Shown here: piece after piece, positions 8,152-61,800 of the stretch | Layout: each line of letters opens with the position of its first letter | Numbering within the stretch: position 1 is the first letter of the stretch | Assembly (NCBI GenBank): GCA_963664225.1 | Contig: OY760937.1 | Location: 5,440,001-5,504,000 of the forward strand | Origin: Verrucomicrobiia bacterium | Lineage (GTDB): Bacteria; Verrucomicrobiota; Verrucomicrobiia; Limisphaerales; UBA1319 | Reading direction: 5' to 3' | Length of the DNA: 64,000 nt | The notes under the pieces: generated by a model | What the model was told of the DNA's origin: nothing | Databases searched by the model: none | Seen by the model: only the letters and a program-made list of their open reading frames with translations | Program-made: the position numbers and the translations under genes

Positions 8152-8168
8152 TGTAAAAAAAACTTACA
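8152..8168. promoter_or_regulatory. Putative enhancer (UAS) box 1, candidate PrsR site
   Basis: TGTAA-aaaaaac-TTACA palindrome 100 bp upstream of the sigma-54 site. Confidence 0.65.
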
Positions 8169-8265
8169 TCAATAGATTGGCAGGATTTCCGAAATCGGCT
8201 AAAAATATTACGTAAATAACTGGTTATGAATAGGATGTGACTAATTGATTCAGGAGTGGGTAGTT

Positions 8266-8282
8266 TGTAAAACATCCTTACA
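8266..8282. promoter_or_regulatory. Putative enhancer (UAS) box 2, candidate PrsR site
   Basis: TGTAA-aacatcc-TTACA with the same spacing as box 1, followed by an extra TTTACA half-site. Confidence 0.65.
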
Positions 8283-8460
8283 CATTTACATTAACTGAAG
8301 TGCCCGTTTCATAATTGCGCGACCCCATTCTCATTGGAGTATTGCAACCATGATTTCTTCAAGGGATTCGTTCAAAATAACCAGTATTTACGGATTCCGT
8401 TTTCGATGGTAGTCTGAGTGCCGAATCCCAATATCAGCAAACACGCAATCGGCCAAACAT

Positions 8461-28492: not shown

Positions 28493-28567
28493 GCGCGCTT
28501 AGCTCAGTGGTAGAGCATTACCTTCACACGGTAGGGGTCGCAGGTTCAAGCCCTGCAGTGCGCACCA
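28493..28567 (+). tRNA. tRNA-Val (anticodon CAC)
   Basis: Cloverleaf with acceptor GCGCGCT/AGTGCGC, D-arm AGCTCAGTGGTAGAGC, anticodon loop TT-CAC-AC, T-loop GGTTCAAGCC and encoded CCA. Confidence 0.97.
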
Positions 28568-41888: not shown

Positions 41889-42313
41889 GGCTCCGAAAGG
41901 GCTATAAGCCGAGTTCTGTCTTCGTTCCACAAGGGAAACGGAGAGGATCATTTATCTAAGCAGCCGTACCCGGGACTCCGGCTTTCGCCTTGAAACGGGC
42001 CGCTTCAAGAGTCCCCTATTTGGCCTTGCACCCGATGGGGTTTTCCGTGCCCCTACAATTACTTGCAGAGCGGTGGGCTTTTACCCCGCCTTTTCACCCT
42101 TACCGATTTGGCAGACGCAGACTCCTGGTTTCCCAGGAACCGCGAAGCCTTGTCGGCGGTTTAATTTTCTGTGGCACTTTCCATCGACGCGCTTTTCAGC
42201 GCAGCCTTCCGCCTGTATCCCTTTTGACAGGGTTAAGCGGCATCGTGCCCTATGGTGTTCGGACTTTCCTCCCCCGGTTTGCACCGGAAGCGATCCTCCA
42301 TCCTTTCGAAGCC
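41889..42313 (-). ncRNA. rnpB: RNase P RNA (bacterial type A)
   Basis: Minus strand has GAGGAAAGTCC near the 5' end, AGTGCCACAGAAA, and ACAGAACTCGGCTTA near the 3' end. The termini GGCTTCGAAAGG and CCTTTCGGAGCC pair as P1. Confidence 0.96.
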
Positions 42314-42423: not shown

Positions 42424-44376
42424 TCACCAATCCTTGAATCCTGCAGACTTGGGCTTTTGTTGAGGAACAAAATTCATCGCTTTCTCCCCTTCTTTCTGGG
42501 AATCCAAAAGCTGGCGCGCTTGCTGGGGCGTCATTTTTCCATCAGGTTTCGGGCTTTGGGCTTGGGCGGTCTGGTTGGTCGGGGCTGTTTGATCCGGTTG
42601 CGCTGACTTTTGCTCGGCGTTTTCTTTTTTTTCCGAATTCTGCTTCTGGTCCTTTGCGGCTTGTTCGTCTTTTTTGGAATTTTGCTCCTGAGATTGTTTT
42701 TTGTCTGAATCTTGCTGGGATTTCTGGTCTTTGTCAGGCTGTGGCTGCTTTTGGTCCTGTTTTTTGGAATCGGACGGTTTTTGATCTTTGGAATCGTCTT
42801 TTTTGTTCTGGTCTTTGTTTTCTTTATTCTGGTCTGGAGACTGTTGTGGAGGTTGTTTTTTTAATTCCTCCAGCGCCTTTTTGACGAATTCCGAGTTGTT
42901 TTTCGCATCTTTATCCTTTGGATTTAATTTCAGAGCGGACTCGTAATTCTTCATCGCTTGTTCCCAAGCCCCCATTTTTTCTTTAGCCTCCGGCGCTTTC
43001 TCGCCGAGGCGATAATAGGCATTGCCCAGGTTGTAATAGGCATTTTCCTGAAGAGAGAGGTTCTGTGATAAGGTCGCCTGCTCGAGCTCGGACACGGCGC
43101 GTTCATATTCCCTGGCCTGATAGGCGGCGGTTCCTGCGTTGAATGGCAATCGCTCGTCCTTGGGATTGTTTTTCTGAAGCCGCTCGTATTCCTTGAGGGC
43201 CTCGGGATAGTTTCCCTTGTTATAGAGATCCAAGGCCTTATCTGAGGAAGCCGTTGTCGTGGTTGCGCTCAAGATGAAGGCCAGCGCACCCGCAATGGTA
43301 GCGCTTTGCGAGACTTTGGCGCCTAAAGTCGATTTGGACCGACGCTTGATCCGTAGTCGGACCGGCAGGAATATCTCGACAATCAACAATGCGATAGCAG
43401 CACCGAGGGGCCACTGGAAACGCTCCTGGTAATGTTTAAGAATGCGCGGCGGACGTTTTTCAGTTGTTGGAATGCCACCGACTCTGATTTGGCCCAATAG
43501 CGGAGCCAAACCACGCTCGTAAAGCACGTCCATCGTGTTTGCGCCCCTCAAGGGAAGATAAAAACCGTGTGTTCCTTTGGCCACGTTCTGAAGTAAAGCC
43601 TCGTTTAAATGGGATTTGACCATGTTCCCTTCCTCGTCCTTAACGAACGGTCCGCTGTCCTTTTCGTCCTTGATGGGGATCAGCTCACCTTGGGAAGTTC
43701 CCACTCCGATTGTGAAAATGCGAACACCCGCTTTTTCCGCGGCCTCCACTGCGCCAGTGACTCCTTCCTCGTGATCTTCGCCGTCGGTGATCAAAATAAT
43801 CGCTTTTTCGTTGTTCTCATCCTCTTTGAAAGCTTTGAGGGCGATGCGAATGGCTTCGGCAATGGACGTGCCTCCCTGCGGAATGAAACCGACATCGATG
43901 AGATTCAGACTCTGACGATAGGCCTCATCATCCACAGTGAGCGGGCATTGCAGAAAGGCCGTTCCAGCAAAGGCGACCAGACCGAGACGATCTGTCTTTG
44001 CCAGAGGCATCAATTCGAGAGCAGCCAATTTGGCGCGTGCCATTCGATTAGGAGCAACGTCCTGTGTGGACATGCTGCGCGAAGTGTCCAAGGCGACTAC
44101 AATATCCAGCCCGCTCTGTTTGAGTTCCTCCAGTGTAAATCCCCATTGTGGACGTGCGAGCGCAAGCATGAGGAACGCAACGCTCGCAAGGATCAGAATC
44201 ATCCGCAGTTTTTGAATGGCTGGCTTAAGGCCGACGGTCAGGTTGGCCAGCAATCGCGAGCGAACAAACAAGCCCATGTCTCTCTGCCGCTTGCGCCAGG
44301 CAAAGAACATAAAGACAGACAGCAATCCAACCACCGCAAGCAGGATGAGGAGCATGGGAGGGTTTCCAAATTTCAT
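42424..44376 (-). CDS. BatB-like VWA domain fused to BatC-like TPR region and Q/K/D-rich tail
   Basis: LARPQWG, DTSRSM (MIDAS), P.R...AK, TDGEDH, YNLGNAYY TPRs, low-complexity tail ending KDW; ATGA overlap with batA. Confidence 0.88.
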   Translation of the reverse strand: MKFGNPPMLLILLAVVGLLSVFMFFAWRKRQRDMGLFVRSRLLANLTVGLKPAIQKLRMILILASVAFLMLALARPQWGFTLEELKQSGLDIVVALDTSRSMSTQDVAPNRMARAKLAALELMPLAKTDRLGLVAFAGTAFLQCPLTVDDEAYRQSLNLIDVGFIPQGGTSIAEAIRIALKAFKEDENNEKAIILITDGEDHEEGVTGAVEAAEKAGVRIFTIGVGTSQGELIPIKDEKDSGPFVKDEEGNMVKSHLNEALLQNVAKGTHGFYLPLRGANTMDVLYERGLAPLLGQIRVGGIPTTEKRPPRILKHYQERFQWPLGAAIALLIVEIFLPVRLRIKRRSKSTLGAKVSQSATIAGALAFILSATTTTASSDKALDLYNKGNYPEALKEYERLQKNNPKDERLPFNAGTAAYQAREYERAVSELEQATLSQNLSLQENAYYNLGNAYYRLGEKAPEAKEKMGAWEQAMKNYESALKLNPKDKDAKNNSEFVKKALEELKKQPPQQSPDQNKENKDQNKKDDSKDQKPSDSKKQDQKQPQPDKDQKSQQDSDKKQSQEQNSKKDEQAAKDQKQNSEKKENAEQKSAQPDQTAPTNQTAQAQSPKPDGKMTPQQARQLLDSQKEGEKAMNFVPQQKPKSAGFKDW

Positions 44377-45368
44377 GGCAGTTTCCTCCAAACGGTATGG
44401 CCTAGAATAATTTCCAGGAGCAGCAGGAACAAGCCTGGTACGACCGCATAATCGAAGACGTCGTTGTAACGCTGGAATTTTTTGACTGTGGCCTCGGTTT
44501 TTTCCAGACGATCAATTTCCGCATAAACGCGGCGCAGGGTGTCCGAACTATCCGCGCGGTAATATTTTCCCCCTGTCTTTTCCGCGATCTGTTTAAGAGT
44601 GTCCTCGTCGATATCCACCTTTATTTGCACGTAAACCTTGCGCCCGAACATGTCGGTTTGGGGGTAGGGGGCGACGCCGCGGGTGCCAACGCCGATGGTA
44701 TAAACCTTCACCCCCAAAGCTTGGGCGGCTTCGGCAGCGGTCAAGGGGGGCACCTGTCCGGCGTTGTTTTGGCCATCAGTCATCAGAATTATGATTTTGC
44801 TTTTCGAGGGGATGTCCTTGAGGCGGTTAAGAGAGGCTGTAAGCGCCGCGCCTATCGCTGTTCGATCCTCAATAGTGCCAATGTCCAGGCGCTCGAGGTT
44901 GTTTAAAAAGAAATCATGATCCAGCGTCAGCGGCGCTGCAATGTAAGCCCGTCCGGCGAAGGCGACCAGACCAATGCGGTCGTTTTCACGTTTGAGGACG
45001 AACTTTTGTAGAACTTCTTTTGCTACTTCGAGGCGGTTTGCACGCTGCCCCTGCAGTTCAAAGTCCTCAGAAGCCATGCTGCTGGACAAATCCAAAGCAA
45101 CCACAATGTCGATGCCGCTTGCGGTGATTTTTGCATGGCCTTCACCCAATTGGGGGCGGGCAAAACCAATAATGAACAAGGCCAGAGCGAGCCAACGCAT
45201 TCGGGGCAGGATGGCTCCGGCCTTCGAACGTGTGATGCCCGTGATACCTTTAACCAATTGAACCGAAGAATAAAGAAAAGCGGATTCGCGACCGTAACGC
45301 CCCCGCAGCCAGGCTAAAAACAGCAAGGTTGGCAATAAAAGTAAAAACCAGGGATGGGCGAAGGTCAT
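44373..45368 (-). CDS. batA: BatA-like VWA domain membrane protein
   Basis: FAHPW, ARPQ, DLSSSM, DRIGLVAF, TAIG.A, TDGQNNAG and IA..TGG.YYRA motifs. Confidence 0.9.
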   Translation of the reverse strand: MTFAHPWFLLLLPTLLFLAWLRGRYGRESAFLYSSVQLVKGITGITRSKAGAILPRMRWLALALFIIGFARPQLGEGHAKITASGIDIVVALDLSSSMASEDFELQGQRANRLEVAKEVLQKFVLKRENDRIGLVAFAGRAYIAAPLTLDHDFFLNNLERLDIGTIEDRTAIGAALTASLNRLKDIPSKSKIIILMTDGQNNAGQVPPLTAAEAAQALGVKVYTIGVGTRGVAPYPQTDMFGRKVYVQIKVDIDEDTLKQIAEKTGGKYYRADSSDTLRRVYAEIDRLEKTEATVKKFQRYNDVFDYAVVPGLFLLLLEIILGHTVWRKLP

Positions 45369-45958
45369 GCGATGACGGGGGGGTCCGAGTTTTTCGCGAG
45401 TTCCGCCTGGGCATCGGACTGTGGGTGCGGGCAGGTTTCATCTACCAGTCGGAGGGCCGCATCGTAAAGAGCCTGCAACTCGTTTTGGCCTGGCTCGTAG
45501 CGTGCGAATTTCACCATGTCACACTGGCGCAGAAAGTCGGCGAGCAGCGTTTTGTGAGGGCCGGAGAGTTTGTGACTGGACTGCAACTCAGAAAGGAACT
45601 CTTCTGTGGTACGCTCCGGGGCTCTCAAATCAAAGCGTTCCTCAAGATAGACTCGCGCGGCATCGCTGACGAAGATCGTGAACGGTTTGGGTTGCCCCAT
45701 GAGCGCTAATGCTTGCTGGAGTTTCTCCCGGGCGCGCACTTCGGGGGGAATCGGCGCCTCTGGTGCTTCCAACACTTTGTTGCGCCTGCGTTTCCACCAC
45801 CACCAGGCTGCAGCACCGAGTATCAGCAGCAGCAACAACACCCATAACCAACCCCATCCTGAAGGAATGAAGACCGGTGGGCGAATGGGTTGGATATCCA
45901 TTGTCGCCGCTGGAACGGCAGGGGCTGCCTTAACGATATATCGCCGTTGCAATTTCAT
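45365..45958 (-). CDS. Bat-cluster single-TM protein (DUF4381-like)
   Basis: DI.PI, one TM, R.YLE.RF...A.E.TT.E and D.VKFA motifs; overlaps both neighbours by 4 nt. Confidence 0.82.
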   Translation of the reverse strand: MKLQRRYIVKAAPAVPAATMDIQPIRPPVFIPSGWGWLWVLLLLLILGAAAWWWWKRRRNKVLEAPEAPIPPEVRAREKLQQALALMGQPKPFTIFVSDAARVYLEERFDLRAPERTTEEFLSELQSSHKLSGPHKTLLADFLRQCDMVKFARYEPGQNELQALYDAALRLVDETCPHPQSDAQAELAKNSDPPVIA

Positions 45959-46911
45959 CCTCTTCGCCGCCTTTTCTCACGTGTCTCAAAAAAGCGCCCA
46001 AGCGCCGCCACGTACGATTCATCTGTGCGCAGTTGGATGGAATCAATTTTAGCAGAGCGAAACAGGCGAATTAGATCTTCCTGGGCTTGGGTTTGACGTT
46101 GGGCAAAGGTGCGACGTTTACGTTCATCGCCTGTGTTGACTTCAACGACCTCACCGGTTTCCGCGTCTTTAAGGATCAACCTTCCCAGGGCGGGAAGCTC
46201 CATTTCATAGCGGTCCACCACATGCACAGCCACCACATCATGGCGCCGATTGGCCTGGCGCAGAGAGGTGAGGGAGGCTTGAGCCAGCGTTTCGGAGAGC
46301 ACCACTTTGCGGCGCAAGTGGGCTGTAATTTCGGCCCGCGTTGGGAACGTTTGTCCCAGGAAATCGGAGATTACGACGGCGATGGCCCGGTGCGGCGTGA
46401 CTCGAACCAGAAACTCCAGGGCACAATTTAAATCAGTGCCGCGGTGTTTGGATTCGTGATATAAAATCTCACGAATTACGCGCAGGACGTGACGGCGTCC
46501 TTTGCGGGGAGGGATGAATTTCTCAACTGTTTCGGTAAAAATAATCAAACCGACCTTGTCGTTGTTGCGGATTGCTGAGAATGCCAGCACAGAAGCGATT
46601 TCCGCAGCCAGTTCCCGTTTCGTTTGTTCGCCGGAGCCGAACAGTCCCGAACCGCTTAAATCGACAATCAGCATCAGGGTCAATTCGCGCTCTTCCACGA
46701 ATTTTTTTACGAATGGATGGTTCATTCGGGCCGTCACGTTCCAATCGATGGAACGGACCTCGTCGCCAGGCTGGTATTCGCGCACCTCCTCAAAATTCAT
46801 GCCCTGACCCTTGAATACACTATGGTAATGCCCGGCAAGCGATTCGCTGACCAAACGGGTGGTCCGCAACTCGATGGCGCGTATTTTTTTGAGCAGTTCG
46901 CGTGGAATCAT
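45955..46911 (-). CDS. DUF58 domain protein
   Basis: SVFKGQGMNFEEVREYQPGDEVRSIDWNVTAR, EERE and ISDF motifs. Confidence 0.92.
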   Translation of the reverse strand: MIPRELLKKIRAIELRTTRLVSESLAGHYHSVFKGQGMNFEEVREYQPGDEVRSIDWNVTARMNHPFVKKFVEERELTLMLIVDLSGSGLFGSGEQTKRELAAEIASVLAFSAIRNNDKVGLIIFTETVEKFIPPRKGRRHVLRVIREILYHESKHRGTDLNCALEFLVRVTPHRAIAVVISDFLGQTFPTRAEITAHLRRKVVLSETLAQASLTSLRQANRRHDVVAVHVVDRYEMELPALGRLILKDAETGEVVEVNTGDERKRRTFAQRQTQAQEDLIRLFRSAKIDSIQLRTDESYVAALGRFFETREKRRRRG

Positions 46912-46966
46912 GGTGTGTTTTTATCCGGACAGGTACAAGTGGCCTGTAACCATTACCTTGTATGCA

Positions 46967-47956
46967 TCAGGGAACTGGCAATTCGTCGAAGATTTTTTGA
47001 ATGACCGTTTCGCTGGTTTTTTCTTCGGCCTCCGCTTCATAGGTCACCGCGACGCGGTGACGGAGCACATCCATGCCGATGGATTTGACATCCTGTGGGA
47101 TGACGTAACCACGGCCCTGGAGGAACGCATAAGCCTTGGCTGCGAGAGTGAGCGAAATTGTGGCACGCGGTGAAGCCCCCAATTGAATAAGGGACTTGAG
47201 ATCGATTTTATAGAATTCTGGTTCGCGGGTGGCGCAGACGATGTCCACGATGTAATCCTTGACTTTGTCATCGATGTAAATGTCATTGATGACCCGACGC
47301 GCCTCAAGGATCTGGCTGGCCTGGACCACCGGCTGGGTTTCCGGTGGATTGTTGGTTCGGGCCATCAACTCCAATATCTGACGTTCTTCCGCCCGTGATG
47401 GGTATCCGATTTTCAATTTCAACATGAAGCGGTCAACTTGGGCTTCGGGAAGAGGATAAGTGCCTTCCTGTTCGATAGGATTCTGAGTGGCAAGGACCAG
47501 GAAAGGTTCTTCCAAAGGAAAGGTATGGTCGCCAATGGTCACCTGTTTTTCCTGCATGGCTTCCAGAAGGGCGCTCTGGACTTTGGCCGGTGCGCGGTTG
47601 ATTTCATCGGCAAGCACCAGATGAGCAAAGACGGGTCCCTTGCGCGTCGTAAAACCACCGGAACCGGGGTTGTATATCTGGGTGCCCACAATGTCTGCGG
47701 GAAGCATATCCGGTGTGAATTGGAGACGCGAAAACTTCAGATGGATGCAATGGGCCAGGGATTTGACCGAGAGCGTTTTGGCCAATCCAGGCACGCCTTC
47801 CAGCAGAAGGTGCCCATTGGCCAAAAGACCGATGACCAGACGCTCCACGAGGTATTTCTGGCCAATGACCACTTTGTTCATCTCACTGTACAAGGGCTGC
47901 AAAAATGCACCGGCCCGTTGCACTTCCTCATTAATGGCACTGATACCCGCATTCAT
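46967..47956 (-). CDS. moxR: MoxR family AAA+ ATPase
   Basis: LLEGVPGLAKT, QFTPDMLPAD, DEINRAPAKVQSALLEAM and ATQNPIEQEGTYPLPEAQ.DRF motifs. Confidence 0.95.
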   Translation of the reverse strand: MNAGISAINEEVQRAGAFLQPLYSEMNKVVIGQKYLVERLVIGLLANGHLLLEGVPGLAKTLSVKSLAHCIHLKFSRLQFTPDMLPADIVGTQIYNPGSGGFTTRKGPVFAHLVLADEINRAPAKVQSALLEAMQEKQVTIGDHTFPLEEPFLVLATQNPIEQEGTYPLPEAQVDRFMLKLKIGYPSRAEERQILELMARTNNPPETQPVVQASQILEARRVINDIYIDDKVKDYIVDIVCATREPEFYKIDLKSLIQLGASPRATISLTLAAKAYAFLQGRGYVIPQDVKSIGMDVLRHRVAVTYEAEAEEKTSETVIQKIFDELPVP

Positions 47957-48184
47957 AATGTAATCTTAACAACAGTTGACCACTTAGCCGCCGATTTGTT
48001 CAGAACCGGCTCCTTCCAAAGGAGTTGGCCGGGAGTCAGGCAGCGACGCGTTAAAAAGGTCCCGCGCCATTTTTCTGCCTGATTGAGCTTAATGCGTCAA
48101 TCGCCTTGTCAATCGGGGATGACACAGTTTATTAATAGGCTTGGAAAGGCTGTGGCGGAAAACCAGCCATTACACTAAAACCGC

Positions 48185-49324
48185 ATGATCGGTGCATTAT
48201 TGACAATTAACGACAGCGTCCGCGAATTCATTCGACGGATACCCATGGCTGCGTCTGGAATGGACTCTGAATCCCAGACGTCACAAGAAGCGGATTTCAA
48301 CGAGATGGCCCTTGCCATTGCGAAGGTGCAAATACAGCTAAACCCTTTGCTCAAGGCGCTTTGCCAAAAAAGGAAGATCGATTCATCGGGACTCAAACAC
48401 TGGATGGAAATTCCGGCTGTGCCCACCACAGCTTTCAAAACGTCCGGGTGTAGTTGCCTGCCTGCGAAGGACTTGACCACCATATTTCATTCGAGTGGCA
48501 CCACTTGTCAAAACGCCAGTTGCCATGGGCATAGCGAGAAAACGCTCGCCATTTATGAGGCATCTGTAGTGCCATGGTTTAATTACCATTTGTGCGGTGA
48601 CGACAACAAGAAATTGAGTTTCCTGTCCCTGACGCCTTCGTTTCTGAATGCGCCACATTCCTCACTGGCGCACATGATGACCACAGTCATGAACCATTGG
48701 GGTGGGGGAACGGGTCAGTTCACGGGGGTGGTGGATGCCGACCTGGGATGGATTTTGGATACTCAAAAAACAGTAAAGGCACTTGAGGAGGCAGTGAATG
48801 GAAAACAACCGATGATGGTTTTAGGAACGGCCTTTTCATTTGTGCATCTTCTGGATCACTTGCATAAGTGCAATAGGCAGTTTGCACTGCCTGCAGGTTC
48901 TCGCGTGATGGAAACAGGCGGTTACAAAGGACGCTCTCGCACAATGCCCAAGGTTGAATTGCACCGGATTATATCCCGTTGGTTGGGAGTTCGGAGATCA
49001 GACATCGTTTGCGAATATGGCATGTGCGAGTTGAGTTCGCAGGCCTACGATTGCCGTTACTCTTCAATACCGGGAATAGAGCCTGACGAGAAGGAGCGAG
49101 TGTTTCATTTTCCGCCGTGGGCGAGGATGTGCGTCGTTTCCCCTGAAAATGGTCAAGAGGTCAAGGAAGGAGAAACAGGTTTGATTCGTGTATGCGATAT
49201 CGCCAATATTGGCTCCAGTATTATGGTGCAAACGGAAGATTTGGGAATCAAGCGTGGCAACGGTTTTGAGCTGGTCGGGCGAGCGGTGGAGTCCGAACCT
49301 CGTGGCTGTTCCTTGATGTCATAA
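48185..49324 (+). CDS. LuxE-like acyl-protein synthetase
   Basis: IPAVP..AFK, SSGTT, METGGYKG, EYGMCELSSQAY, TEDLG, GR and C-terminal PRGCSL. Confidence 0.85.
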   Translation: MIGALLTINDSVREFIRRIPMAASGMDSESQTSQEADFNEMALAIAKVQIQLNPLLKALCQKRKIDSSGLKHWMEIPAVPTTAFKTSGCSCLPAKDLTTIFHSSGTTCQNASCHGHSEKTLAIYEASVVPWFNYHLCGDDNKKLSFLSLTPSFLNAPHSSLAHMMTTVMNHWGGGTGQFTGVVDADLGWILDTQKTVKALEEAVNGKQPMMVLGTAFSFVHLLDHLHKCNRQFALPAGSRVMETGGYKGRSRTMPKVELHRIISRWLGVRRSDIVCEYGMCELSSQAYDCRYSSIPGIEPDEKERVFHFPPWARMCVVSPENGQEVKEGETGLIRVCDIANIGSSIMVQTEDLGIKRGNGFELVGRAVESEPRGCSLMS

Positions 49325-49350
49325 TCTGAATCGCATCCGGACAAAGATTT

Positions 49351-50586
49351 GTGAACACCCCAAAGCGCCAACATAAGACCGTCACTCTCTGGCTTAGCGG
49401 GATTTTGCATGCCTTTACGCATCTTTATACAACGGCGCTGATACCGCTGTATCTGCTCATTCAGAAGGATTTCCAGCTTTCAGGCGATGGGCAGGCTGCG
49501 TTAATGGTCACCGTCCAGACGGTGGCTTACGTACTTCCCAGCTATTGGCTGGGGGTATTGGCCGACAAATACAGTCGGAAAACCATCATGGCCGTCGGTT
49601 TGATTCTCAATGGTCTGGCGTTCATTGCGCTGGCTTTCGCGCCAAGCTACGGATGGGCGATGGTTTGCCTGGTGATTGCGGGATTTGGAGGCAGTTTTTA
49701 TCATCCGGCGGCTTCGGCAATGGTTGTTCGTTTGTTTCCCTCAAATCCCGGACATGCGCTCGGGCGGGTTGGCATTGGAGCGGGGGCCGGTTTTTTTGTA
49801 GGACCTGTCTATGCGGGTTGGCGAGCTTCGACCGCTGGCTGGAGAGCGCCCTTGTTGGAACTGGGGCTGTTTGGCGTTTTAGCGGCCGTGGCATTCTATT
49901 GGTTCGCCCAGGAAGAGATCGCGGAAGCCGTACCGCAACGAGAACAAGTTGTTCGGGACACGTGGAAATTTGAACCACGGTGGCTCTGGGTGTTTTTTGG
50001 CGTTTGCGTGGCGTTCAGCCTGAGGGATTTTGCTGGAGGCGGGATGTCCACCCTCAGTTCGCTTTTCCTGCAAAGGGCCTGGGGTTATGATTCTGCCTGG
50101 GCGGGCATTGCGCTGGGCTCGCTTTCGCTCATGGCCATGATCAGCAATCCTCTTTTTGGAAGTCTGAGCGATCGGAATCGCGAGGGATCGATCCGGACGG
50201 TGCTGTTCATAGCTGCAGGCCTGGCCACGCTCATGCCGTGGCTACCCAGGCATTTTCTTTTACCCGCATTGCTGGCCTATGGATTCTTTTTCATGGCCAG
50301 TTTCCCGATGGTCGAGGCAGCGGTGATGAGTTCGGTGCCCGATCATGTTCGGGGACGGGTCATGGGTTTTCTTGTCATGTTTTGCGGCGGAGCCAGCAGC
50401 ATATCCCACTGGATCATGGGTGAAAGCGTCAAAGGGTTGGGTTCCCGCTCTGGCACCCCTTCGGCATTTGTTCCTGTTTTTGCGACATTGGGTGTCTTGA
50501 TTGTCAGCGCGCTACTCGGGTTGCGGGGCTTGCGCGCGTTGCGACGTTCGTCACCGTTGCCAGTTCATGCTAACGCCAATTTATGA
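49351..50586 (+). CDS. MFS transporter (Fsr-like)
   Basis: About 12 TM segments; H...H in TM1, G.LADKYSRK, G..FYHP and RGRVMG motifs. Confidence 0.9.
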   Translation: MNTPKRQHKTVTLWLSGILHAFTHLYTTALIPLYLLIQKDFQLSGDGQAALMVTVQTVAYVLPSYWLGVLADKYSRKTIMAVGLILNGLAFIALAFAPSYGWAMVCLVIAGFGGSFYHPAASAMVVRLFPSNPGHALGRVGIGAGAGFFVGPVYAGWRASTAGWRAPLLELGLFGVLAAVAFYWFAQEEIAEAVPQREQVVRDTWKFEPRWLWVFFGVCVAFSLRDFAGGGMSTLSSLFLQRAWGYDSAWAGIALGSLSLMAMISNPLFGSLSDRNREGSIRTVLFIAAGLATLMPWLPRHFLLPALLAYGFFFMASFPMVEAAVMSSVPDHVRGRVMGFLVMFCGGASSISHWIMGESVKGLGSRSGTPSAFVPVFATLGVLIVSALLGLRGLRALRRSSPLPVHANANL

Positions 50587-51950
50587 ACCTGCCTAATTAT
50601 TTTCTGGCTGATCTTCCTCCCGAGGCCGTGCTCAATCCGGTGATGATCACCGAGGCGTGCCAGACGCTGAAGAGAAACCGTGCCCGTTTTTTGGAGGAAC
50701 GGACGACAGACAGGATCATTCATATTCTTGCGGACAACGCCCGCCGCTGGATGGATCCCAGCGATTCTTTCCGTCAATTGGCGCTGGCTCAAGGCCCGGC
50801 GGAACTCGGCTGTTCGGTCCAGACATTGGAGCGTGGAATTGACGCTTTCTTTTCTGAAATGACCCGGGAAAATCTCGAAGCGATGGTCGCCCAGGATTTG
50901 GGCCATCACCACCGGCTCGACAGGCCGGTTTCCTCGCCTGAAGAGCGCGAGACGCACCGTGCATCAATTGCGCGTGGACCGGAATTATTGGTGCATATTG
51001 CATCGGGAAATATTCCCGCACCCGCATGGATGAGCATTGCCTTGGGACTGCTGGCGCGGTCGGCTCAATTCATGAAATGCGCCACCAATGCCACGCTTCT
51101 GCCCAGGTTATACGCCCATTCTCTTTACGATGCCGAGCCCAAGTTGGGGGCCTGTCTGGAAATTGCCTGCTGGCCGGGTGGGAGCAGAGAATTGGAAGAA
51201 GCCCTGTTTGCCGAGGCCGATTGTGTGACCGCTACTGGTTCGGATGATGCCCTGACCTCGATTCGTCAATGTCTGCCCATACGATGCCGGTTTATCGGCT
51301 ATGGTCATAAGGTCAGCTTTGGTTACATAAGCCACAAAGCACTATTGCACGACACCATTGAAGGAGTCGTGGAAAGGGCCGCCACAGATGTTGTCGCGTG
51401 GAACCAGCTCGGATGTCTTTCCCCGCATGTCTTTTATGTCGAGGATGGGCGTGAGCACATGGGTGAAAAATTTTCGGAAAAACTCGCGGTTGCATTGGCC
51501 AGGCGCGAGGAAATCGAGCCGCGCGGCCAGATACCCATTCAGGCTTCGGCGGCCATCGCCTCGCGCCGGGCATTTTATGAAATTCGTGCCGCGCATTCCC
51601 CTGAAACGCGCCACTGGTTCAGTCCTGAGAGCACCGCCTGGTCGGTAATTTACGAGGCGGACCCGCAATTCCAAAAATCGTGTCTTAACCGGTTCATTTA
51701 TGTGAAAGGGGTGACGGACTTGATCGAAGCGCTTAAAGGAGCAGAATTAGTGCGCGAATATGTTTCGACTGTGGGACTTGGCGTGGCTGAGGAAGAGATT
51801 AAAGAAATCGTGCCGCAATTGGCTCGATGGGGCGTTCCGCGCATTTGTCCACTGGGTCGGATGCAGCGGCCTCCCTTGGGATGGCGGCATGATGGACGTC
51901 CGCCTTTGGCTGATTTGATAACCTGGACTGACTGGGAACATGAGACTTGA
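50583..51950 (+). CDS. LuxC-like acyl-CoA/acyl-protein reductase
   Basis: HIASGNIP, ATGSD, YGHKVSF, NQLGCLSPH (catalytic Cys) and RICPLGRMQRPPLGWRHDG motifs. Confidence 0.88.
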   Translation: MNLPNYFLADLPPEAVLNPVMITEACQTLKRNRARFLEERTTDRIIHILADNARRWMDPSDSFRQLALAQGPAELGCSVQTLERGIDAFFSEMTRENLEAMVAQDLGHHHRLDRPVSSPEERETHRASIARGPELLVHIASGNIPAPAWMSIALGLLARSAQFMKCATNATLLPRLYAHSLYDAEPKLGACLEIACWPGGSRELEEALFAEADCVTATGSDDALTSIRQCLPIRCRFIGYGHKVSFGYISHKALLHDTIEGVVERAATDVVAWNQLGCLSPHVFYVEDGREHMGEKFSEKLAVALARREEIEPRGQIPIQASAAIASRRAFYEIRAAHSPETRHWFSPESTAWSVIYEADPQFQKSCLNRFIYVKGVTDLIEALKGAELVREYVSTVGLGVAEEEIKEIVPQLARWGVPRICPLGRMQRPPLGWRHDGRPPLADLITWTDWEHET

Positions 51951-52308
51951 ACTACGCAAAACCTTTCAATTTGAATCCGCCCATTTTCTTCCGTTTGTAG
52001 GCGAGACACATAAATGCCGACGTCTCCACGGTCACAGCTTTGTCGTGGAAATTGCCGTGCGCGGTGAGTGCGATCCCCAATTGGGCTGGGTGATGGACTA
52101 TGCGGACATGACAAGCGCCTTTCGTCCAATATTGGAAGAACTTGACCATCATTACTTGAACGCAATTCCGGGCTTGAGCAATCCAACGAGCGAAAACCTG
52201 GCGGTCTGGATTTGGGATCGGCTGCAGTCCCAGTTGCCACTTCTTTCAGAGATTAGGGTGGCTGAAACATGCACAGCGCGTTGTGTTTACAACGGAAACA
52301 AGCGATAG
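51940..52308 (+). CDS. queD: 6-carboxytetrahydropterin synthase QueD
   Basis: FESAH.LP, HKCRRLHGHS (CX3HGH), LDHHYLN, NPTSENLA and ET motifs. Confidence 0.93.
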   Translation: MRLELRKTFQFESAHFLPFVGETHKCRRLHGHSFVVEIAVRGECDPQLGWVMDYADMTSAFRPILEELDHHYLNAIPGLSNPTSENLAVWIWDRLQSQLPLLSEIRVAETCTARCVYNGNKR

Positions 52309-52393
52309 CGCCTCCCGGCGGTCCGAGTTTGCAGACTACAGGGTTCATCGGGGAAAAGATTATTCCATTCTGGTAGTTGTGAACAATCAGAGC

Positions 52394-52408
52394 TGGCACG
52401 GAAACTGC
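52394..52408 (+). promoter_or_regulatory. Possible sigma-54 promoter upstream of the giant CotH gene
   Basis: TGGCACG-GAAA-CTGC keeps the GG-N10-GC spacing; about 410 nt upstream of ATG 52816. Confidence 0.4.
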
Positions 52409-52815
52409 CCTTAAAGGACCATTAGCAAAATTACGAATTGGATTGGAATTCGGAATTTTTCTGAACATTTTGCGGGAAACTTAGCGGCTGCAAATTGACA
52501 ACTTGTTGGTTTCAAACGAGAAAGCGGTAAACTTGTGGTTGAAACAAACTGGTATTCAGGCAAACATCGCTGAAATCCGAGTCATGCATTGTTAAGAGTT
52601 TATTGGGATACCGGTTTGGTCGATTGTTGATATTTAGTCATAACATGTTTGTGGTAAGCATATTGAATCAGAATTGCATGTGGGAACGCGTGCGATCTGT
52701 ATTAAAATTTTCCAATATACATCCCTGTATCCATCATTGTTTAAGCTTCAGTTCGTTTGAAGAACTGACGAGCACTCAGGTAGTTTTTTAAAGAATTCAT
52801 CGTCCCAAGATCCCC

Positions 52816-55800
52816 ATGATAAGCGCTAAAAATATTCGTGTAATCTGTTGGACTGCATTGGTTTTTCTGGTCGCATGGTTGTCGCCGTCAGGTTCGGTTG
52901 GAGCACAAACCCTGCCGTTCTGGATGGATCGTGATATTGGCGGCGTCAATATCGCAGGTAGCGCAACCTATTCATCTGGAGTCTATACCGTCAAAGGCAG
53001 CGGCAGCGACATCTGGGATATAACCGATGCATTCCATTTTGTTTATTATCCGATGAACGGTGACGGGGAAATGGTTTTGCATGTGCTTTCACAGGATAGC
53101 ACGGACTCCTGGGCCAAGGTTGGGCCGATGATTCGTGAGACACTCGATGCGGGTTCCAAGCATGCAATTATGTGCGTAACTCCCGGCAATGGAACATCTT
53201 TCCAACGTCGCCGGGAGACTGGTCAGGCCAGTGATTACAGCGGTTCCGGGGATGGAATTACGGCGCCGTACTATTTAAAACTGACGCGGGAGGGCACGAC
53301 ATTTACGGGGTATAAATCGGTGGATGGTGTTGATTGGGTGATGGTTGGATCGGATGTGATCGTGATGCAGTCGGCGGTCTATGTTGGATTTGCGGTGACG
53401 TCCCATAACAATAACATGCTCTGCACCAGCACTTTGGAAATACCGCAGACGCCGCCATCGATTCTCCTGAATCCCCAAAGCCAGACCGTCAGTGACGGAG
53501 GGGCGACCTACTTTAACGTAAAAGCGACGGGTGCAATGCCTCTTTTTTATCAATGGCGACGTAATGGCGCCAATTTGACATCGGCAACGAATTTAAACCT
53601 GACTCTCGATCCGACGACAGTCACCATGGCGGGGAATTACAGCGTTGTTATCACGAACGCCGTCGGAAGGGCAACCAGCAGTGATGCATTGCTGACGGTG
53701 ACAGTGGACTCAGTGCCCCCGACCCTTTTGGCAGTCACCAACACAGCGGCCACAAACGTGGTAATCACTTTTTCGGAAGCGGTCGAAGCGGCCAGCGGCA
53801 CGAACGCAGCCAATTATTCGTTGAACAATGGGGCGGCCATTCTTGGGGCAAGATTTGGAACAAACCAACAAACCATCCTTTTACAGACCACGGTTTTGAC
53901 CGTGGGTGGGTCCTACACGCTGACGGTGAATAATGTGCGCGACCGGTCGTCGTCGGGAAACCTTATTGCGGCGAACAGTCAGAAATCATTTGTGGTGGCC
54001 GATACGATGGTTTTTGGGTTGTGGCGCGAGGTGTATTTGAATGCCGCGGACGGAGCGGGAACGTTAAGCTCATTGACCAACAATCCCGTTTTTCCAGACA
54101 GCCCGAGCACGAGCGAGCTTTGGACCAATAGTTTTGAAGCTCCGAGCAACACCGGAATCAATAGTTACGGACAGCGGCTGCGTGGATACATCGTCCCCCC
54201 GGTTTCCGGCAATTACGTGTTTTGGATTTCAAGCGATGACAATGGAACATTGTTTGTCAGCACGGATGATACCCCCGCCAACAAAAGAGTTGTGGCGTGG
54301 GTGGCGTCGTGGACCGGTTCGCGGGAATGGACGAGGGAGGCAAACCAGCAATCCCTGCCCATCACGCTGGAGGCGGGGAAAGTCTATTACACGGAGGCCT
54401 TGATGGCCCAGGGAGGCGGCGGGGATAATCTGGCAGTGCGCTGGCAGTTGCCTAATGCAACCATCGAGGAACCGATGCCCGCAAATCGTTTGATTCCCTG
54501 GGGCACCGTTTTTGGGCCGCCCGCGATTCGCACGCAACCAGCCAACACCAATGCGGTGGAAGGGGGGGCGGCGGTATTTTCCATCGCCTTGAGCAGCATC
54601 GGCCCGGTGTCCTACCAATGGCAGCGCAACGGGGCGAATATTTCAGGAGCCAACCAAATCAACTATACCAACGATCCTGTGTCGCTCGGGGACAATGGCG
54701 CGACGTTCCGCTGCGTGGTATCCAATACCAAAGGCTCCACCAACTCATTGGAAGCCACCCTGACCGTGAGTCCGGATGTGACACGTCCGACGCTGGTTTC
54801 GGCGTATTCCCAGGGTAACCGGGGTGTGCTGGTGACTTTTAGCGAGCGTGTGGATGTCACCTCCGCCTCGCAGGCCCTTAATTATGGGATCAATAACGGG
54901 ATTTCCGTCACGCAGGCGACGCCGGATTCTTCTGGAAGAGTGGTGTTGTTGATGACCGGACCGATGACTTACGGGACCAGCTACGTGTTGACTGTGAATG
55001 GTGTGAAGGATCGGGCGACGACTCCCAATACCATTTTGTCAGGGTCGCAGATCGCCTTCACCGCATTGGAGTTGACGCCACAAAATGTTGGCAATCCAGC
55101 CCAGCCGTTTCAGATATCGGTGGTCGCGGGCGGCATCAATGTGACCGGAGGCGGCTCCGATATTGGCGGGGCATCGGATCAGTTTAACTTTAATTATCAG
55201 GTCAAGAGTGGTGATTTCGACGTCAAAGTGCGCATCGGCGCGCTGGGACTGAGCGATTCGTGGGCCAAAGCGGGGCTGATGGCGCGCGAAACACTGGATG
55301 GACAGAGCCGGTTTGCGGCGGCGATTGCAACGCCGTCGATCAGCGGCTGTTTTTTTGAGCAGCGTCAGAATCCGGGCGGGGCAGGGGAAAGCTCCGGAAC
55401 GTTTCCGGTTAATTATCCCAACACCTGGCTGCGGCTCCAGCGGAGCGGGAACCAGTTTACAGGTTACGCAAGTTATGACGGGCAGTTGTGGACGGTGCTG
55501 AATTTGGTCACCCTCTCGATGCCGACCCAGATTTATGTAGGCCTGGCGTTGTCGAGCCACGATCCGGCGGCGTCAACAATGGCGCAGTTTCGCGATTATG
55601 GCAGCGTCACGGGAGGGGTGGTGGGCAGTGCGTCATCGCCGTTTGAACCGCTGGGACCGAGCAGCCGGAAAACGGGACTGGTGATTTCGGAGATCATGTA
55701 CAAACCGGCGCCGCGGGCGGATGGCAAGGTGCTTGAGTATCTGGAGCTGTTTAATTCAAATCCTTATCCAGAAGACATCAGCGGGTATCGCATTAGCGGA

Positions 55801-58800
55801 AGCGTCGATTTCGAATTTCCCGCGAAGACGACATTGCCTGGAGGAGGATTCCTGGTTGTCGCCCGGTCGCCCATCGATATTCAGAGTGTTTATGCCCTGA
55901 CCAACGTGATGGGGCCCTACACGAACACATTGAAGAACAGCGGCACCCTGCGTTTGCGTAACAAGAGGGACGCCATATTTTTGGAAATCAATTATGCCAG
56001 CAAACCTCCCTGGCCGGTGGCTGCGGACGGCACAGGCCACTCGCTGGTTCTGGCCAGACCCTCTTACGGTGAAGATAATCCCCAAGCCTGGGATATCAGC
56101 GATGTGGTTGGCGGATCGCCCGGTTCGGTAAAGACCTATCGTCCAGGCCCGCAGAGATCGGTCCTGATCAACGAAATCCTCGCGCGCCCGGCAGTGCCAG
56201 GGGCGGGATTTGTGGAGCTATACAACCACAGCAATCAGCCGGTTGACCTCTCAGGCTGTATTTTGACCGATGATCCCATTACCAACAAATATGTGATGTC
56301 GTCGGGGACCAGTATTCCGGCGCGGGGTTTTCTATCGTTCACAGAGGCGCAGTTGGGTTTTGCATTCAATGGCGGGGGGGGGACATTGTTCTTCAGAAAT
56401 GCCAGCCTGGACCGGGTATTGGATTCGCTGCGTTACGAAGCACAAGGGCTTGGATCGGCCTTTGGCCGGTATCCGAATGGGGCTTCTGAATGGTATCCCT
56501 TGACCGTTGCCACACCCGGCGCGAGCAATCCAGCCATTCGCATTCAGGACATCGTCATCAACGAGATCATGTTCAATCCAATCTCCGGCAACGACGATGA
56601 CCAGTATGTTGAGTTGTACAATCAGGGATCCACTGCGGTGGATCTCTCGGGATGGAAATTAACGGCAGGGATCAGTTTTACATTTCCGACGAGCTTCACC
56701 ATAGCAACCAAGGGTTACGCGGTGGTGTCGTGCAATACCAGCAACCTGTTTGCGAAATATCCCAATCTCAATGCGGGTAATACCGTAGGAAATTTCTCGG
56801 GCAAACTATCCCATGGGGGCGAGCGGCTGGTTCTCACCATGCCGGATACCATTGTTTCCACGAACGCCCTGGGCGTTGCGAAAACCAATGCCGTCGATAT
56901 TGCCATCGACGAAGTCACGTATTGCAGCGGCGGGCGTTGGGGCCAATGGGCGGGTGGTGGAGGCAGCAGCATGGAGTTGCGGGATCCGCGATCCAATCGT
57001 CGGCTGGCGCAGAATTGGGCCGACAGCGATGAGAGCGGAAAATCGACCTGGAGCACCGTGGAAGTCACAGGCCTGCTGGACAACGGAAATGGAGCGGCTG
57101 ACAATCTGCAAATTACGATGCTGGGAGAAGGGGAATGCCTTGTGGACAATGTGGAAGTGTTGAAGCAAGGCACCGTGGCAAACCTGGTGGTCAATCCGAC
57201 ATTTGAAGCCGGCCTGGCGAACTGGACGATGCAGGGCGATCATGTCCGCTCAAGCCTCGAGAACAGCGGGTATGCGGGTTCCCGCTCACTGCATATCAGG
57301 GCCTCAGCGCGCGGAGATACGGGAGCCAACCGCATACGGGCCGACCTGACCGGACCGTTGCTGGAAGGGCAGACCGCGACATTGCGCGCGCATGTCCGCT
57401 GGCTGAAGGGGTGGCCTGAGATCATTTTACGGCTTCACGGAAATTATCTGGAAGCGTATGGGAAATTAAACGTTCCGACGAATCTGGGGACTCCTGGGGC
57501 GGCCAACAGCCGCTCCGTGGCGAATGCCGGTCCTGCGATTTACGAGGTGACACATGGCCCCGTTGTGCCGGTTGCGGGAGAAGCCGTGGTGGTCACCGCA
57601 CGGGCGCAGGATCCCGATGGACTTTCCGCGATGCGGCTTAATTATCGCATCGATCCGAGTGCCAGTTATACGACGGTCAACATGGTCGATGACGGAACGG
57701 GAGGCGATGCAGTGGCGGGGGATGGCCTGTTCAGCGCGACCATACCGGGGCAAGCGGCAAATCAACTGGTCGCTTTTTATGTGGAAGCGACTGACAAAGC
57801 CACGGCTGGAAGCAGGTTTCCCGCGGACGCGCCGACACGGGAATGCCTTGTCATGTTTGGCGACCCCGTTCCGACCACGAGTTTTGGCATTTATCGCTAT
57901 TGGCTCACGAGGGCCAATGTCAACACATGGAGCGCGCGGGAGAATCTGAGCAATGAATTGATCGATTGCACCTTTGTGTACGGCAATTCACGGGCTGTAT
58001 ACAATGTCGGCGGGCGTTATTCAGGCAGTCCCTATCACCAGGGTTTCGACTCGCCGGTGGGAAGCCTTTGCCACTATTCATTCGATCTGCCCACAGACGA
58101 TCAGGCGCTGGGAACCACATCGTTTAATAAAATTCACGCGCCCGGCAATGGTCCCTTCGACGACCTGACCCTTCAGCGGGAGCAAACCGCGTATCGCATG
58201 GCGCGCCAGCTAGACCTTCCATGGAATTACAAGCGTTATGTGGTGTGCTACGTCAACGGCAACCGCCGCGGGACGCTCATGGAGGATACGCAGGTTCCCA
58301 ATGGGGATATCGTGAACGAGTATTTCTCCAACGATCCCAATGGCCAGCTCTACAAGATTCAACCCTGGTTTGAGTTTGACGATGTCACATCGGGAGCGAT
58401 GGGCTTCGTCAATGTTTCCTGGTGCACCCTGAACAATTATACCACCACGGGCGGGGTCAAAAAACTGGCCCGCTACCGGTATAATTATCTGACACGGGCC
58501 GCAAACCAGACTGCCAATAACTATACAAACGTTTACAACCTGATCGACGCCGCGAATGTTCCCGCCGGGGCCGCATTTATGAAGAGCATGGAAGCGCAGG
58601 CGGACATGCCGCTATGGATGCGCACCTTTGCCGTCAATCATGCGGTGGGCAACTGGGACAGCTTTGGCTTTCAGAATGCGCAAAACATGTATGCCTATAA
58701 GCCCCTGAATGGGCTTTGGTCCCTGATGATATGGGATTTCAACATTGTTCTGGGCAACAGTAATTCCTACGGCCCCACAGGGGACGATTTGTTTGCCTAT

Positions 58801-61800
58801 AATGGCGCGGATGGCCCCATGGGGGTGATTTATTCGACGCCGAAATTCAGGAGACTCTATTGGCAGGCCCTGGAGGATATTGCGCGCGGGCCGATGGATG
58901 TGGCGCAGATGGGTCCCCTCATGGATGCCTGTTACGCGGCCTTTTCGGAAAATGGAATTTCTGTGGCGTCGCCCGCAGCGATTAAATCATGGATGACGGC
59001 CCGGCAGACTTACCTTCAGCAACAACTGGCCACGGTGGCGTCGGATTTTGCGATAGCGAGCAATAATGGCAATAATTTCAGCACGAACAACAGCCTGCTG
59101 ACCTTGAGCGGCAGGGCCCCGATGTCGGTGCGGGTCATCAAAGTCAACGGAGTGGAGTATTCCATCACCTGGAATACCGTTACCGGATGGACGATGAACC
59201 TGCCATTAAGCGCAGGCGCCAATACGCTTTTGGTGCAGGGGTTCGATGCCCAAGGGGCGCTGGTGGCGAATGCCTCCAAGACAATATCGGTCACCTACAC
59301 CGGCGCGAGCGAATCGCCGATTGGTCATGTGATCATCAACGAGATCATGTATCACCCGGCAGTGACGGACGCCGAATTCATTGAAATCTTCAACACCTCG
59401 GCCAGTTCGGTATTCGACCTGTCGCGCTGGCGTCTGGATGGCGCTGGATTCGTATTTCCTGACGGGACATTGATCAGGCCGCAGGGTTTTGTGGTGGTTC
59501 CCAAAAACCAACTGGCATTTGCCGCCGCCTATGGAACGGCGATTCCGTTGACGGGGCAATTCGGTGGAAACCTGAAGAATGGCGGGGAGACGCTGCGACT
59601 GGTCATTCCCGGAGCGACACCGGATCTGGATGTGATCGTGGATACCGTCGAATATCACAACACGCCGCCGTGGCCCGCGGCAGCGGATGGCGAAGGAAGT
59701 TCGCTGCAGTTGATCGATCCCAATCAGGACAATAAGAGGGTGGGCAACTGGACCGCCACGCCGCAATGGCAATTCGTTCAGGTGACAGGCACCGCGACGT
59801 CATCGCTTTTGTATGTGTATTTAACGAACGCGGGAGATGTATATATCGATGATTTGAAACTGGTGGCCGGTGCGGTGGCGGAAGCGGGAACGAATCTGAT
59901 CAATAATGGCGATTTCGAATCCAGCCTGAGCGGGCCGTGGACTTTATCGAGCAATGTTGGCACGAGCGTGCTGACCAGCGTGACCACGCACAGCGGCACG
60001 AATGCCCTGCACCTCATTGCCTCGACGGCAGGAAGCAGCAAGGCCGATTCCCTCTGGCAGGATACGCTGCCGCTGACCAACGGAGCGCAATATACATTGA
60101 GTTTCTGGTATCATCCTGGAACAAATGTCGGCGGCCTGGTCATGCGACTGTCCAACAGTTCATCCACGACTGGCCTGTATGCGGCTGTTGGGGTGAAACC
60201 GGCGGGAATCTCCTCCTACACGCCGGGAGCCGCCAACAGCGTGAAAGGGACTCTGCCGGTTTTCCCATCCTTGTATCTAAACGAAGTGGAACCCGAAAAC
60301 CTGAGCGGCCCGACCGATCAAAACGGGGAAAAGGATCCCTGGCTCGAGCTGTTCAATCCGGGCACAAACACCCTCAGCCTCGCCGGCTATTATCTGGCCG
60401 ACAACTATACGAACTTGACGCAATGGGCATTCCCGGCCGACGCACAGATTGGCCCCGGGCAATATCTGTTGGTCTGGCTGGATGGCCAGCCGGGTCAAAG
60501 CACCAGTGCGGAATTGCACACCAGTTTTCGCATTGTGCCCGTGAAGGGCGCAGTGGCCATGTCACGGATGCAAAGCGGTCAACCTGTCGTTTTCGATTAT
60601 GTGAATTATAAGAATGTTGTGGCCGGGCGCACATACGGTTTGTATCCGAACGGGACTCCGGGCAATCACGAGGCCTTCTATTATCCGACGCTTGGAGCCG
60701 CCAATAATTTCACCTATCCGCAGGTGAACCTCGTCATCAATGAATGGATGGCGGGAAACACCCACACCCTGTTCGATTCAACCAATGAGCCATGGGCGGA
60801 TTGGTTTGAGATTTATAACGGTGGAGACACGGCGGTCGATCTGACGGGTTACGGGCTGAGCGATACGGCCACCGACACCACGAAATTTGTCATTCCAATG
60901 GGAAGCGCGATTCAGCCTCACAGCTTCCTGCTCGTCTGGGCCGATAACGACACGAGTCTGAATACCAACGCGAGCCCTGATTTGCACGCGAATTTCCGAT
61001 TAGGCATTCATGGCGAATACATTGGACTGTTTGCGCCCAATCACCAGATTGTCGATCAGGTTTCGTTCGGTGAACAAACCAACGACGTCAGCCAGGGCCG
61101 GTGGCCGGACGGCAATACCAACAGCATGTATTACATGGCAACCCCGACGCCGCGCGGAGCCAACATCATCGCAAATGTGCCCGTCAATACGGCTCCCGTC
61201 CTTGGTGCCATTGCGGATCGCACCATCAACGAAGGTGAAATCTGTTTATTCACCATCACGGCGACGGATCCGGATCAACCCGCGCAATCCCTTGTATACG
61301 CCCTCGAGGCCGGAGCGCCTGAAGGCGCGACGATCAACGCGTCGAGTGGTGAGTTTTCCTGGACGCCGACAGAGGCGCAGGGGCCTTCGACCAATCTCAT
61401 CACGGTAATGGTCACAGACAATGGTTATCCGGCCAAGTCAGATGCGAAGACTTTCACCATCACGGTCAAAGAAGTGAATACGCCGCCCACGCTGGGCAGC
61501 CTGGGGGATCTTACCGTCAATGAAGGACAGTTGATTAATTTTTATGTCACTGCTTCGGATCTGGATATTCCCGCGCAAATGCTCACGTTCAGCCTGGATG
61601 CCGGGGCGCCCGGAGGCGCGGGTATCAATCCGACGACCGGCGAATTCACCTGGACGCCCAATGAGGCGCAAGGGCCGGGGATTTATCCCATCACCGTGCG
61701 CATCACCGATAACGGAATACCTATTCAGAGCAACAGCAAGCTGTTCACGATCCAAGTGAATGAAGTCAACCAGGCTCCGGTGCTGGAAGCGATTGCGAAC

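Follow-up and report, generated by a model that had tools for sequence, protein, structure and literature searches.

A luxE-luxC-queD operon in Verrucomicrobiia and a proposed QueC- and QueF-independent route to the queuosine precursor preQ1

We analysed a 64,000-nucleotide stretch of Verrucomicrobiia DNA (the window; positions 5,440,001 to 5,504,000 of contig OY760937.1, assembly GCA_963664225.1), which contains a four-gene operon encoding relatives of the luminescence proteins LuxE and LuxC, a major facilitator superfamily (MFS) transporter and QueD, an enzyme of queuosine biosynthesis. The four open reading frames (ORFs) all lie on the plus strand in the order luxE-like, MFS, luxC-like and queD (Table 1). 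Between luxE and the MFS gene there is a gap of 26 nt, the MFS gene and luxC overlap by 4 nt (ATGA), and luxC and queD overlap by 11 nt. The ORF listing and the letters at the junctions bear out this layout, which had been described in an initial annotation of the window. That annotation had further proposed that the operon may reduce a pterin or deazapurine carboxylate, and had noted no luxAB or luxD in the window. No luciferase or LuxD family was detected among the 43 ORFs scanned in the window. Nor was a Bac_luciferase gene found anywhere in the 5.78-Mb genome, where the annotation would have counted luxAB as evidence against its proposal (the search for LuxD was confined to the window).

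Table 1. Genes of the operon, with positions in the window
Gene and predicted product	Position	Strand	Details
luxE-like, acyl-adenylate/acyl-enzyme synthetase	48185..49324	+	379 aa; Pfam LuxE 65.9 bits
MFS transporter	49351..50586	+	411 aa, GTG start; Pfam MFS_1 151.6 bits
luxC-like, acyl-thioester reductase	50583..51950	+	455 aa; Pfam LuxC 246.8 bits
queD, 6-carboxy-5,6,7,8-tetrahydropterin synthase	51940..52308	+	122 aa; Pfam PTPS 124.8 bits

The LuxE-like protein passes the cut-off of Pfam PF04443 (24.9 bits) and the LuxC-like protein the gathering cut-off of PF05893 (21 bits). Both miss the NCBIfam equivalog models of the luminescence enzymes: the score on the LuxE model NF052244 was 47.9 bits with a cut-off of 550, and that on the LuxC model NF052251 was 65.3 bits with a cut-off of 750, the latter gene also being without luxAB context. 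The fatty acid reductase LuxC-LuxE (7XC6) provides the sole solved relatives of the two proteins, namely its two chains. These match over the full length but weakly (E-values of 5e-8 and 3e-9), which indicates a very distant relationship. The catalytic motifs are intact, as had been annotated. The SSGT motif and the C-terminal GCSL of the LuxE-like protein were aligned with 7XC6 chain E over its full length, and Cys278 of the LuxC-like protein, within QLGCLSP, aligns with the active-site cysteine of chain A. Across 65 LuxE sequences the two LuxE motifs are at least 97% conserved, and Cys278 is at least 90% conserved across 40 LuxC sequences. The architecture is not that of a fused carboxylic acid reductase (adenylation-peptidyl carrier protein-reductase, A-PCP-R), since LuxE is encoded separately from LuxC and a carrier domain was detected by Pfam in neither. 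The luxC gene is single-copy in the genome, and the protein atlas returned generic LuxC clusters only.

QueD carries the CX3HGH motif, in the form CRRLHGH, by which it had initially been classified, and it passes the NCBIfam equivalog TIGR03367 (105 bits; cut-off 89.25). It is the single match to PF01242, the PTPS/QueD family, in a genome that consists of a single contig and is 96% complete. Judged by the names of its homologues, the genome belongs to Verrucomicrobiota of the Pedosphaera/Limisphaerales type. We searched this genome for further queuosine genes. FolE2 (312 bits), Tgt (512 bits, the single TGT-family match), QueA (435 bits) and QueG (390 bits; cut-off 200) were present, as were FolB (88.9 bits) and a QueE-family radical S-adenosylmethionine enzyme (253 bits on TIGR04349), whose remaining top matches were QueE models. 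QueC, QueF and type I FolE gave no match in the genome. QueD, QueE, QueC and QueF figure as the enzymes required up to 7-aminomethyl-7-deazaguanine (preQ1) in a paper from 2024 (PMC11130926). All steps of de novo queuosine synthesis are thus encoded except those from 7-carboxy-7-deazaguanine (CDG) via 7-cyano-7-deazaguanine (preQ0) to preQ1. Because FolE2, QueD, QueE, Tgt, QueA and QueG are present and QueC and QueF are absent, the conversion of CDG to preQ1 is the only gap.

A gene for a class-III aminotransferase (AT) of 459 aa directly follows queE, at a distance of 4.7 Mb from the window. AT reaches no curated cut-off; its best curated score is 290 where 552 is needed, and on the ArgD model TIGR00707 it scores 266.7 bits versus 410. 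The true ArgD is encoded by a separate gene at 3624093-3625379 (418 bits, above the cut-off of 410), of which AT is a paralogue with 30% identity. Two further paralogues look like HemL and BioA (by eye only). An assignment of AT as housekeeping ArgD, HemL or BioA was rejected, as the genome has these three other paralogues, one of them above the ArgD cut-off. The nearest solved relatives of AT are GABA and putrescine aminotransferases, which act on aldehyde/primary amine pairs. Of 29 loci compared in the order to which the genome belongs, 24 have AT directly 3' of queE. The QueC-positive genomes include 41 in which the same QueE type is encoded no more than 500 nt from queC (counted by eye from coordinates). 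In LuxC-positive genomes of the order, AT occupies the position beside queE that is held by queC in QueC-positive genomes.

To describe the distribution of these genes within the order, we used an even draw of 151 genomes. LuxC orthologues occurred in 141 of them (106/110 of the high-quality genomes), and QueE and AT were likewise each present in 141. Full-length QueC was found in nine genomes, the other 55 matches being weak partial PP-loop hits (E >= 2.5e-8), and QueF in eight, always beside QueC. At all 29 of the loci first compared in the order, queD follows luxC. We also collected a second set of 80 loci by a diverse LuxC alignment search of genome contigs, all of which came from the same order. 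Seventy-four of these had at least 500 nt downstream of luxC and were informative for queD, which directly followed luxC in 70 (median gap 74 nt). The luxC-queD arrangement, found in 29/29 and 70/74 loci, is far beyond chance. Upstream of luxC, luxE was present in 63 of 64 informative loci, and no other neighbour recurred in more than 17 of the 80. Since the flanking genes vary between loci, the luxE-luxC-queD triad is kept as a unit.

The MFS gene is a variable member of the operon: of the 64 informative loci, only 24 carry it in the interval from luxE to luxC. Its product in the window has no specific NCBIfam family. In Bartonella henselae, an MFS protein of family PF07690 was experimentally shown to import preQ0 and preQ1 (PMC11130926). 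The window protein belongs to the same Pfam family and is also associated with queuosine metabolism, but the comparison is at the family level, and the MFS is a huge family. By this analogy, a queuosine precursor may be what the transporter carries in those operons that have it (about a third).

Other queuosine genes join the cluster at some loci of the order. In one genus (g190) the operon reads luxE-MFS-luxC-queD-queE2; here a non-orthologous QueE, which matches QueE models only, is encoded inside the operon, and the usual QueE was not found. At locus L143, queE-AT lies 3 kb upstream of luxE, and at locus L161 a FolE2 gene lies 1 kb downstream of luxC. Between queE-AT and luxE-luxC of L143 there is also a gene for the tRNA hydroxylase MiaE (L143:6073-6660; 139.5 bits), a second tRNA-modification gene in that cluster. 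In genome G380, the interval between queD and queE2 (L165:7682-8400) contains two opposite-strand ORFs of 102 and 142 aa that are toxin-antitoxin-like by eye.

We then extended the survey to the phylum, using an even draw of 251 genomes, as a result of which close relatives of the source genome escape the LuxC search. LuxC relatives were detected in seven genomes, namely the source genome, four genomes of one family (f8), G153 and G174. QueC was present in 202 of the 251 genomes and absent from six of the seven with LuxC. An AT orthologue (E<=1e-70) occurred in six genomes, all of them LuxC-positive (6/7, compared with 0/244 LuxC-negative genomes), and the seventh LuxC-positive genome (G039) has an AT fragment that is 53% identical. 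The six distant LuxC-positive genomes all encode QueD and the same QueE type (54-59% identity). LuxC and AT share one phyletic profile, which excludes QueC. If LuxC stands in for QueC, any QueE-positive genome should carry one or the other. We tested this prediction on the 155 QueE-positive genomes of the phylum sample: 147 have QueC, six have LuxC and two have neither. In one of these two (G008), queE is followed by a class-III aminotransferase gene truncated by the end of a 6.4-kb contig. As a separate observation, in the small-genome relatives of family f8, luxE-luxC is located beside genes for MoaC, a MogA-like protein and PRA-CH (HisI-like) (L177:6995-8607; L178:8404-8826).

Another 80 loci came from a scan of metagenomes in which a distant LuxC representative served as the lead; 38 of them had at least 4 kb upstream of luxC. 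In 13 of these 38 informative loci and in L226 (14 in total), queE, AT, luxE and luxC are contiguous on one strand. Pfam and NCBIfam confirmed all four families in the two loci L214 and L229. We calculated a FastTree phylogeny of 103 LuxC sequences without a true LuxC outgroup (L175, L177 and L012 were removed by the length filter). The sequences formed three clades, each with SH-like support of 100, and the branching among the clades was not resolved. Clade A (22 sequences) comprises this order, with queD adjacent in 18 cases. Clade B (30 sequences) holds all 14 queE-AT-luxE-luxC loci; its source names point to Verrucomicrobiia too, and its AT and QueE proteins are 48-53% and 46-52% identical, respectively, to those of the source genome. 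In clade C (48 sequences), no queuosine genes were seen nearby, and a class-III aminotransferase gene directly follows luxC in seven loci. These seven (L246, L254, L263, L267, L272, L284 and L285; e.g. L267:4802-8548) have the order luxE-luxC and then the aminotransferase gene, the product of which differs from the queE-linked AT (35-37% identical).

We propose that the operon encodes one half of a QueC- and QueF-independent route from CDG to preQ1, the base inserted into tRNA by Tgt, and we assign this reading of the sequence data a probability of about 70%. CDG would be made as usual by FolE2, QueD and QueE. The LuxE-like enzyme is predicted to adenylate the CDG carboxylate with ATP and to move the acyl group onto its own C-terminal Cys375. 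The acyl group would then be passed to Cys278 of the LuxC-like enzyme, and reduction with NAD(P)H would release free 7-formyl-7-deazaguanine. Transamination of this aldehyde by AT, using pyridoxal 5'-phosphate (PLP), would give preQ1, and Tgt, QueA and QueG would complete queuosine. These steps fit the chemistry of the enzyme families, because LuxE and LuxC lead from an acid through a thioester to an aldehyde (7XC6) and class-III aminotransferases convert aldehydes to amines. Moreover, 7-formyl-7-deazaguanine is a known compound that is released by QueF variants (PMC13740343).

The reduction was placed after QueE for three reasons: QueE is unspecialised in LuxC-positive genomes, a foreign QueE substitutes for it in one genus, and clade B joins queE rather than queD to the other genes. 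The conserved linkage together with the phyletic patterns strongly supports the view that queD is a functional partner of LuxE and LuxC and not a chance neighbour. The core of the initial annotation depended on queD recurring beside these genes in related genomes, and it does recur. Its suggested reduction of a pterin or deazapurine carboxylate is likewise strongly supported by linkage and phyletic pattern, with the evidence pointing to the deazapurine (CDG), and AT, encoded outside the window, adds a third enzyme to it. The folate-precursor or hydroxymethyl product that it envisaged is not supported.

Several observations weigh against the proposed route. We infer CDG as the substrate from genomic context alone, and specificity for CDG does not extend to the LuxC family at large, because clade C has no queuosine genes nearby. 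In the source genome luxE-luxC and queE-AT are 4.7 Mb apart, and in the f8 genomes AT is not beside queE. A preQ1 riboswitch was not found upstream of the operon, and a permissive scan of positions 47800-48400 was also empty. Five genomes of the order (G255, G269, G298, G315 and G369) have both a close LuxC and QueC, and four of the five have QueF too; some metagenome-assembled genomes among those with LuxC and QueC show 4-6% contamination. Two of the five, G369 (L170) and G269 (L171), keep luxC-queD, but no luxE was found within 5 kb and no AT orthologue in the genome. Both carry queF-queC, acquired or retained, and may have been caught while one pathway displaces the other, or their LuxC may have another role. 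Genome G307 has QueC and QueF and no LuxC, yet gave a partial AT match. In the phylum sample, G174 has LuxC and AT plus an atypically weak QueC match (4.6e-31). The second QueE-positive genome with neither QueC nor LuxC, G064, has no aminotransferase gene adjoining queE (L287, queE at 8109-8774), and it could have found another solution or carry queE as a relic. Finally, genomes that share ancestry do not count as independent cases. The phylum sample contains approximately four independent LuxC-positive lineages, and the Fisher values are therefore descriptive and overstate the case.

Could the same three enzymes act one step earlier? The product of QueD is also a carboxylic acid, and the tightest linkage of luxC in this order is with queD rather than queE. 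LuxE, LuxC and AT would in that case convert 6-carboxytetrahydropterin via the 6-formyl to the 6-aminomethyl pterin. From the latter, QueE would form preQ1 directly, or it would feed another pterin pathway. We consider this improbable. QueE shows no extra divergence in LuxC-positive genomes, its identity there (54-59%) being matched by the 50-58% of the same type in QueC-positive genomes, which must make CDG. A non-orthologous QueE type serves equally in genus g190, and in clade B it is queE and not queD that is contiguous with AT-luxE-luxC. With FolB encoded in the genome, no folate bypass is needed either, which also disposes of the FolB-independent folate route put forward in the initial annotation.

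Alternatively, CDG or a related acid might be converted to a 7-deazapurine other than preQ1. This could be a secondary metabolite, a modified base of DNA or a compound exported by the MFS protein. 7-Deazaguanines have uses in DNA and natural products as well (PMC10516641, PMC6884629), and the MFS gene lies inside the operon here and in the 24 loci counted above. However, most operons are without it, and the near-universal presence of the module in the order is housekeeping-like. The module is also anticorrelated with QueC. The genome encodes Tgt, QueA and QueG with only one TGT-family gene, and no other supply of preQ1 was found in searches for QueC and QueF (YhhQ and QueT were not searched). 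We therefore give this alternative little chance. An exported metabolite, mentioned initially as a possible product, is not indicated by these data, the best reading being preQ1 for tRNA.

The characterised members of both families covered by our sources all reduce long-chain fatty acids (7XC6; PMC9157457). It is nevertheless very unlikely that the two enzymes supply lipids or wax esters with fatty or other aldehydes and have queD as a mere neighbour, an alternative that the initial annotation had allowed. The queD linkage persists in 70/74 loci despite shuffled flanks, and other lineages have brought queE and FolE2 into the cluster. LuxC is found together with a dedicated aminotransferase and to the exclusion of QueC, and neither protein comes near its equivalog cut-off.

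The proposed route through LuxE, LuxC and AT shares its start (CDG), its end (preQ1) and the surrounding enzymes, which are present here, with the canonical QueC/QueF route. In the latter, QueC converts CDG to preQ0 with ATP and ammonia, and QueF reduces preQ0 to preQ1 with two NADPH. The proposed intermediates would be a thioester and a free aldehyde instead of an amide and a nitrile, and nitrogen would come from an amino donor via PLP instead of ammonia. The enzyme families involved (ANL/LuxE, aldehyde dehydrogenase (ALDH)/LuxC and class-III aminotransferase) are unrelated to QueC and QueF. ArgB/ArgC/ArgD and LysZ/LysY/LysJ activate a carboxylate, reduce it to a semialdehyde and transaminate this with a class-III enzyme. 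The proposed route has this three-step logic, ending in a class-III aminotransferase, in common with them. They differ in the activation by a kinase (acyl phosphate) and the ArgC-type reduction, and thus in families and substrates.

Compared with LuxC-LuxE of luminous bacteria (7XC6), the proteins described here are full-length homologues in which the adenylation motif and both cysteines align, and the genes are paired in the same way. Here, however, luxAB is missing, and the genes are associated with queuosine genes and an aminotransferase gene instead. The substrate that we propose, a polar heterocyclic acid, also differs from the fatty acid of the luminous enzymes. In the biosynthesis of tambjamine BE-18591, a LuxC-clustering reductase pairs with a class-III transaminase (TabE/TabA) to lead from a thioester via an aldehyde to an amine (bioRxiv 10.1101/2025.08.11.669332). 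This system has in common with ours an ALDH-type, LuxC-clustering reductase and a class-III omega-transaminase giving a primary amine. It differs in its substrate, a C12 acyl group on a dedicated acyl carrier protein, and, as far as the accessible part of the preprint goes, it works without LuxE-type activation and is set in a Streptomyces secondary-metabolite cluster without a deazapurine link (bioRxiv 10.1101/2025.08.11.669332). No link of LuxC, LuxE or the aminotransferase to queuosine or deazaguanine synthesis was found in the literature searched, in which subscription journals were thinly covered.

We regard the proposed route as a known pathway in altered form, assembled from known enzyme families. 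On balance, we expect that LuxE, LuxC and AT replace QueC and QueF throughout this order, and also in three or more other lineages of Verrucomicrobia. Queuosine synthesis is commonly treated as fully solved, and a second route would alter that view. If the proposal is correct, 7-formyl-7-deazaguanine is a natural intermediate, and this would be the first nitrile-free preQ1 biosynthesis and a natural case of non-orthologous pathway displacement. A large and abundant order of soil and freshwater bacteria would then now be miscalled as auxotrophic, and surveys of microbiomes and tRNA modification would come to score genomes differently as 'makers' or 'users' of queuosine. A function would also be assigned to widespread non-luminous LuxC and LuxE homologues and to an unnamed aminotransferase subfamily. 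More generally, LuxE-LuxC-AT may serve as a cassette that forms amines from acids other than CDG. Such cassettes, those of clade C included, would constitute a general, unrecognised bacterial module for the conversion of carboxylic acids to primary amines. The enzymes of the proposed route would also offer biocatalysts that give amines from heteroaromatic acids and avoid a nitrile on the way. The prediction is directly testable with three cloned genes and one known substrate.

The surroundings of the operon in the window are unrelated to it. A scan of positions 47900-52900 gave three promoter-like and four terminator-like sites, no excess over shuffled sequences. Just upstream of luxE, on the opposite strand (42427-47956, minus), is a cluster of five genes encoding a MoxR-type AAA ATPase, a DUF58 protein, an ORF product of 197 aa to which no family was assigned and a pair of VWA proteins, of which one has TPR repeats. 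This MoxR-DUF58-VWA cluster is not kept beside the operon in relatives. After queD, a gap of 507 nt is followed by an ORF of 3156 aa (52816-62286, plus), the product of which has six Lamin Tail Domains as well as CotH, PA14, He_PIG and Ig-like domains. Rfam searches at gathering thresholds, which covered the window and five loci, detected no riboswitch and returned only a class A bacterial RNase P RNA (window 41889-42309, minus; 216.5 bits) and a single tRNA gene (window 28493-28564, plus).

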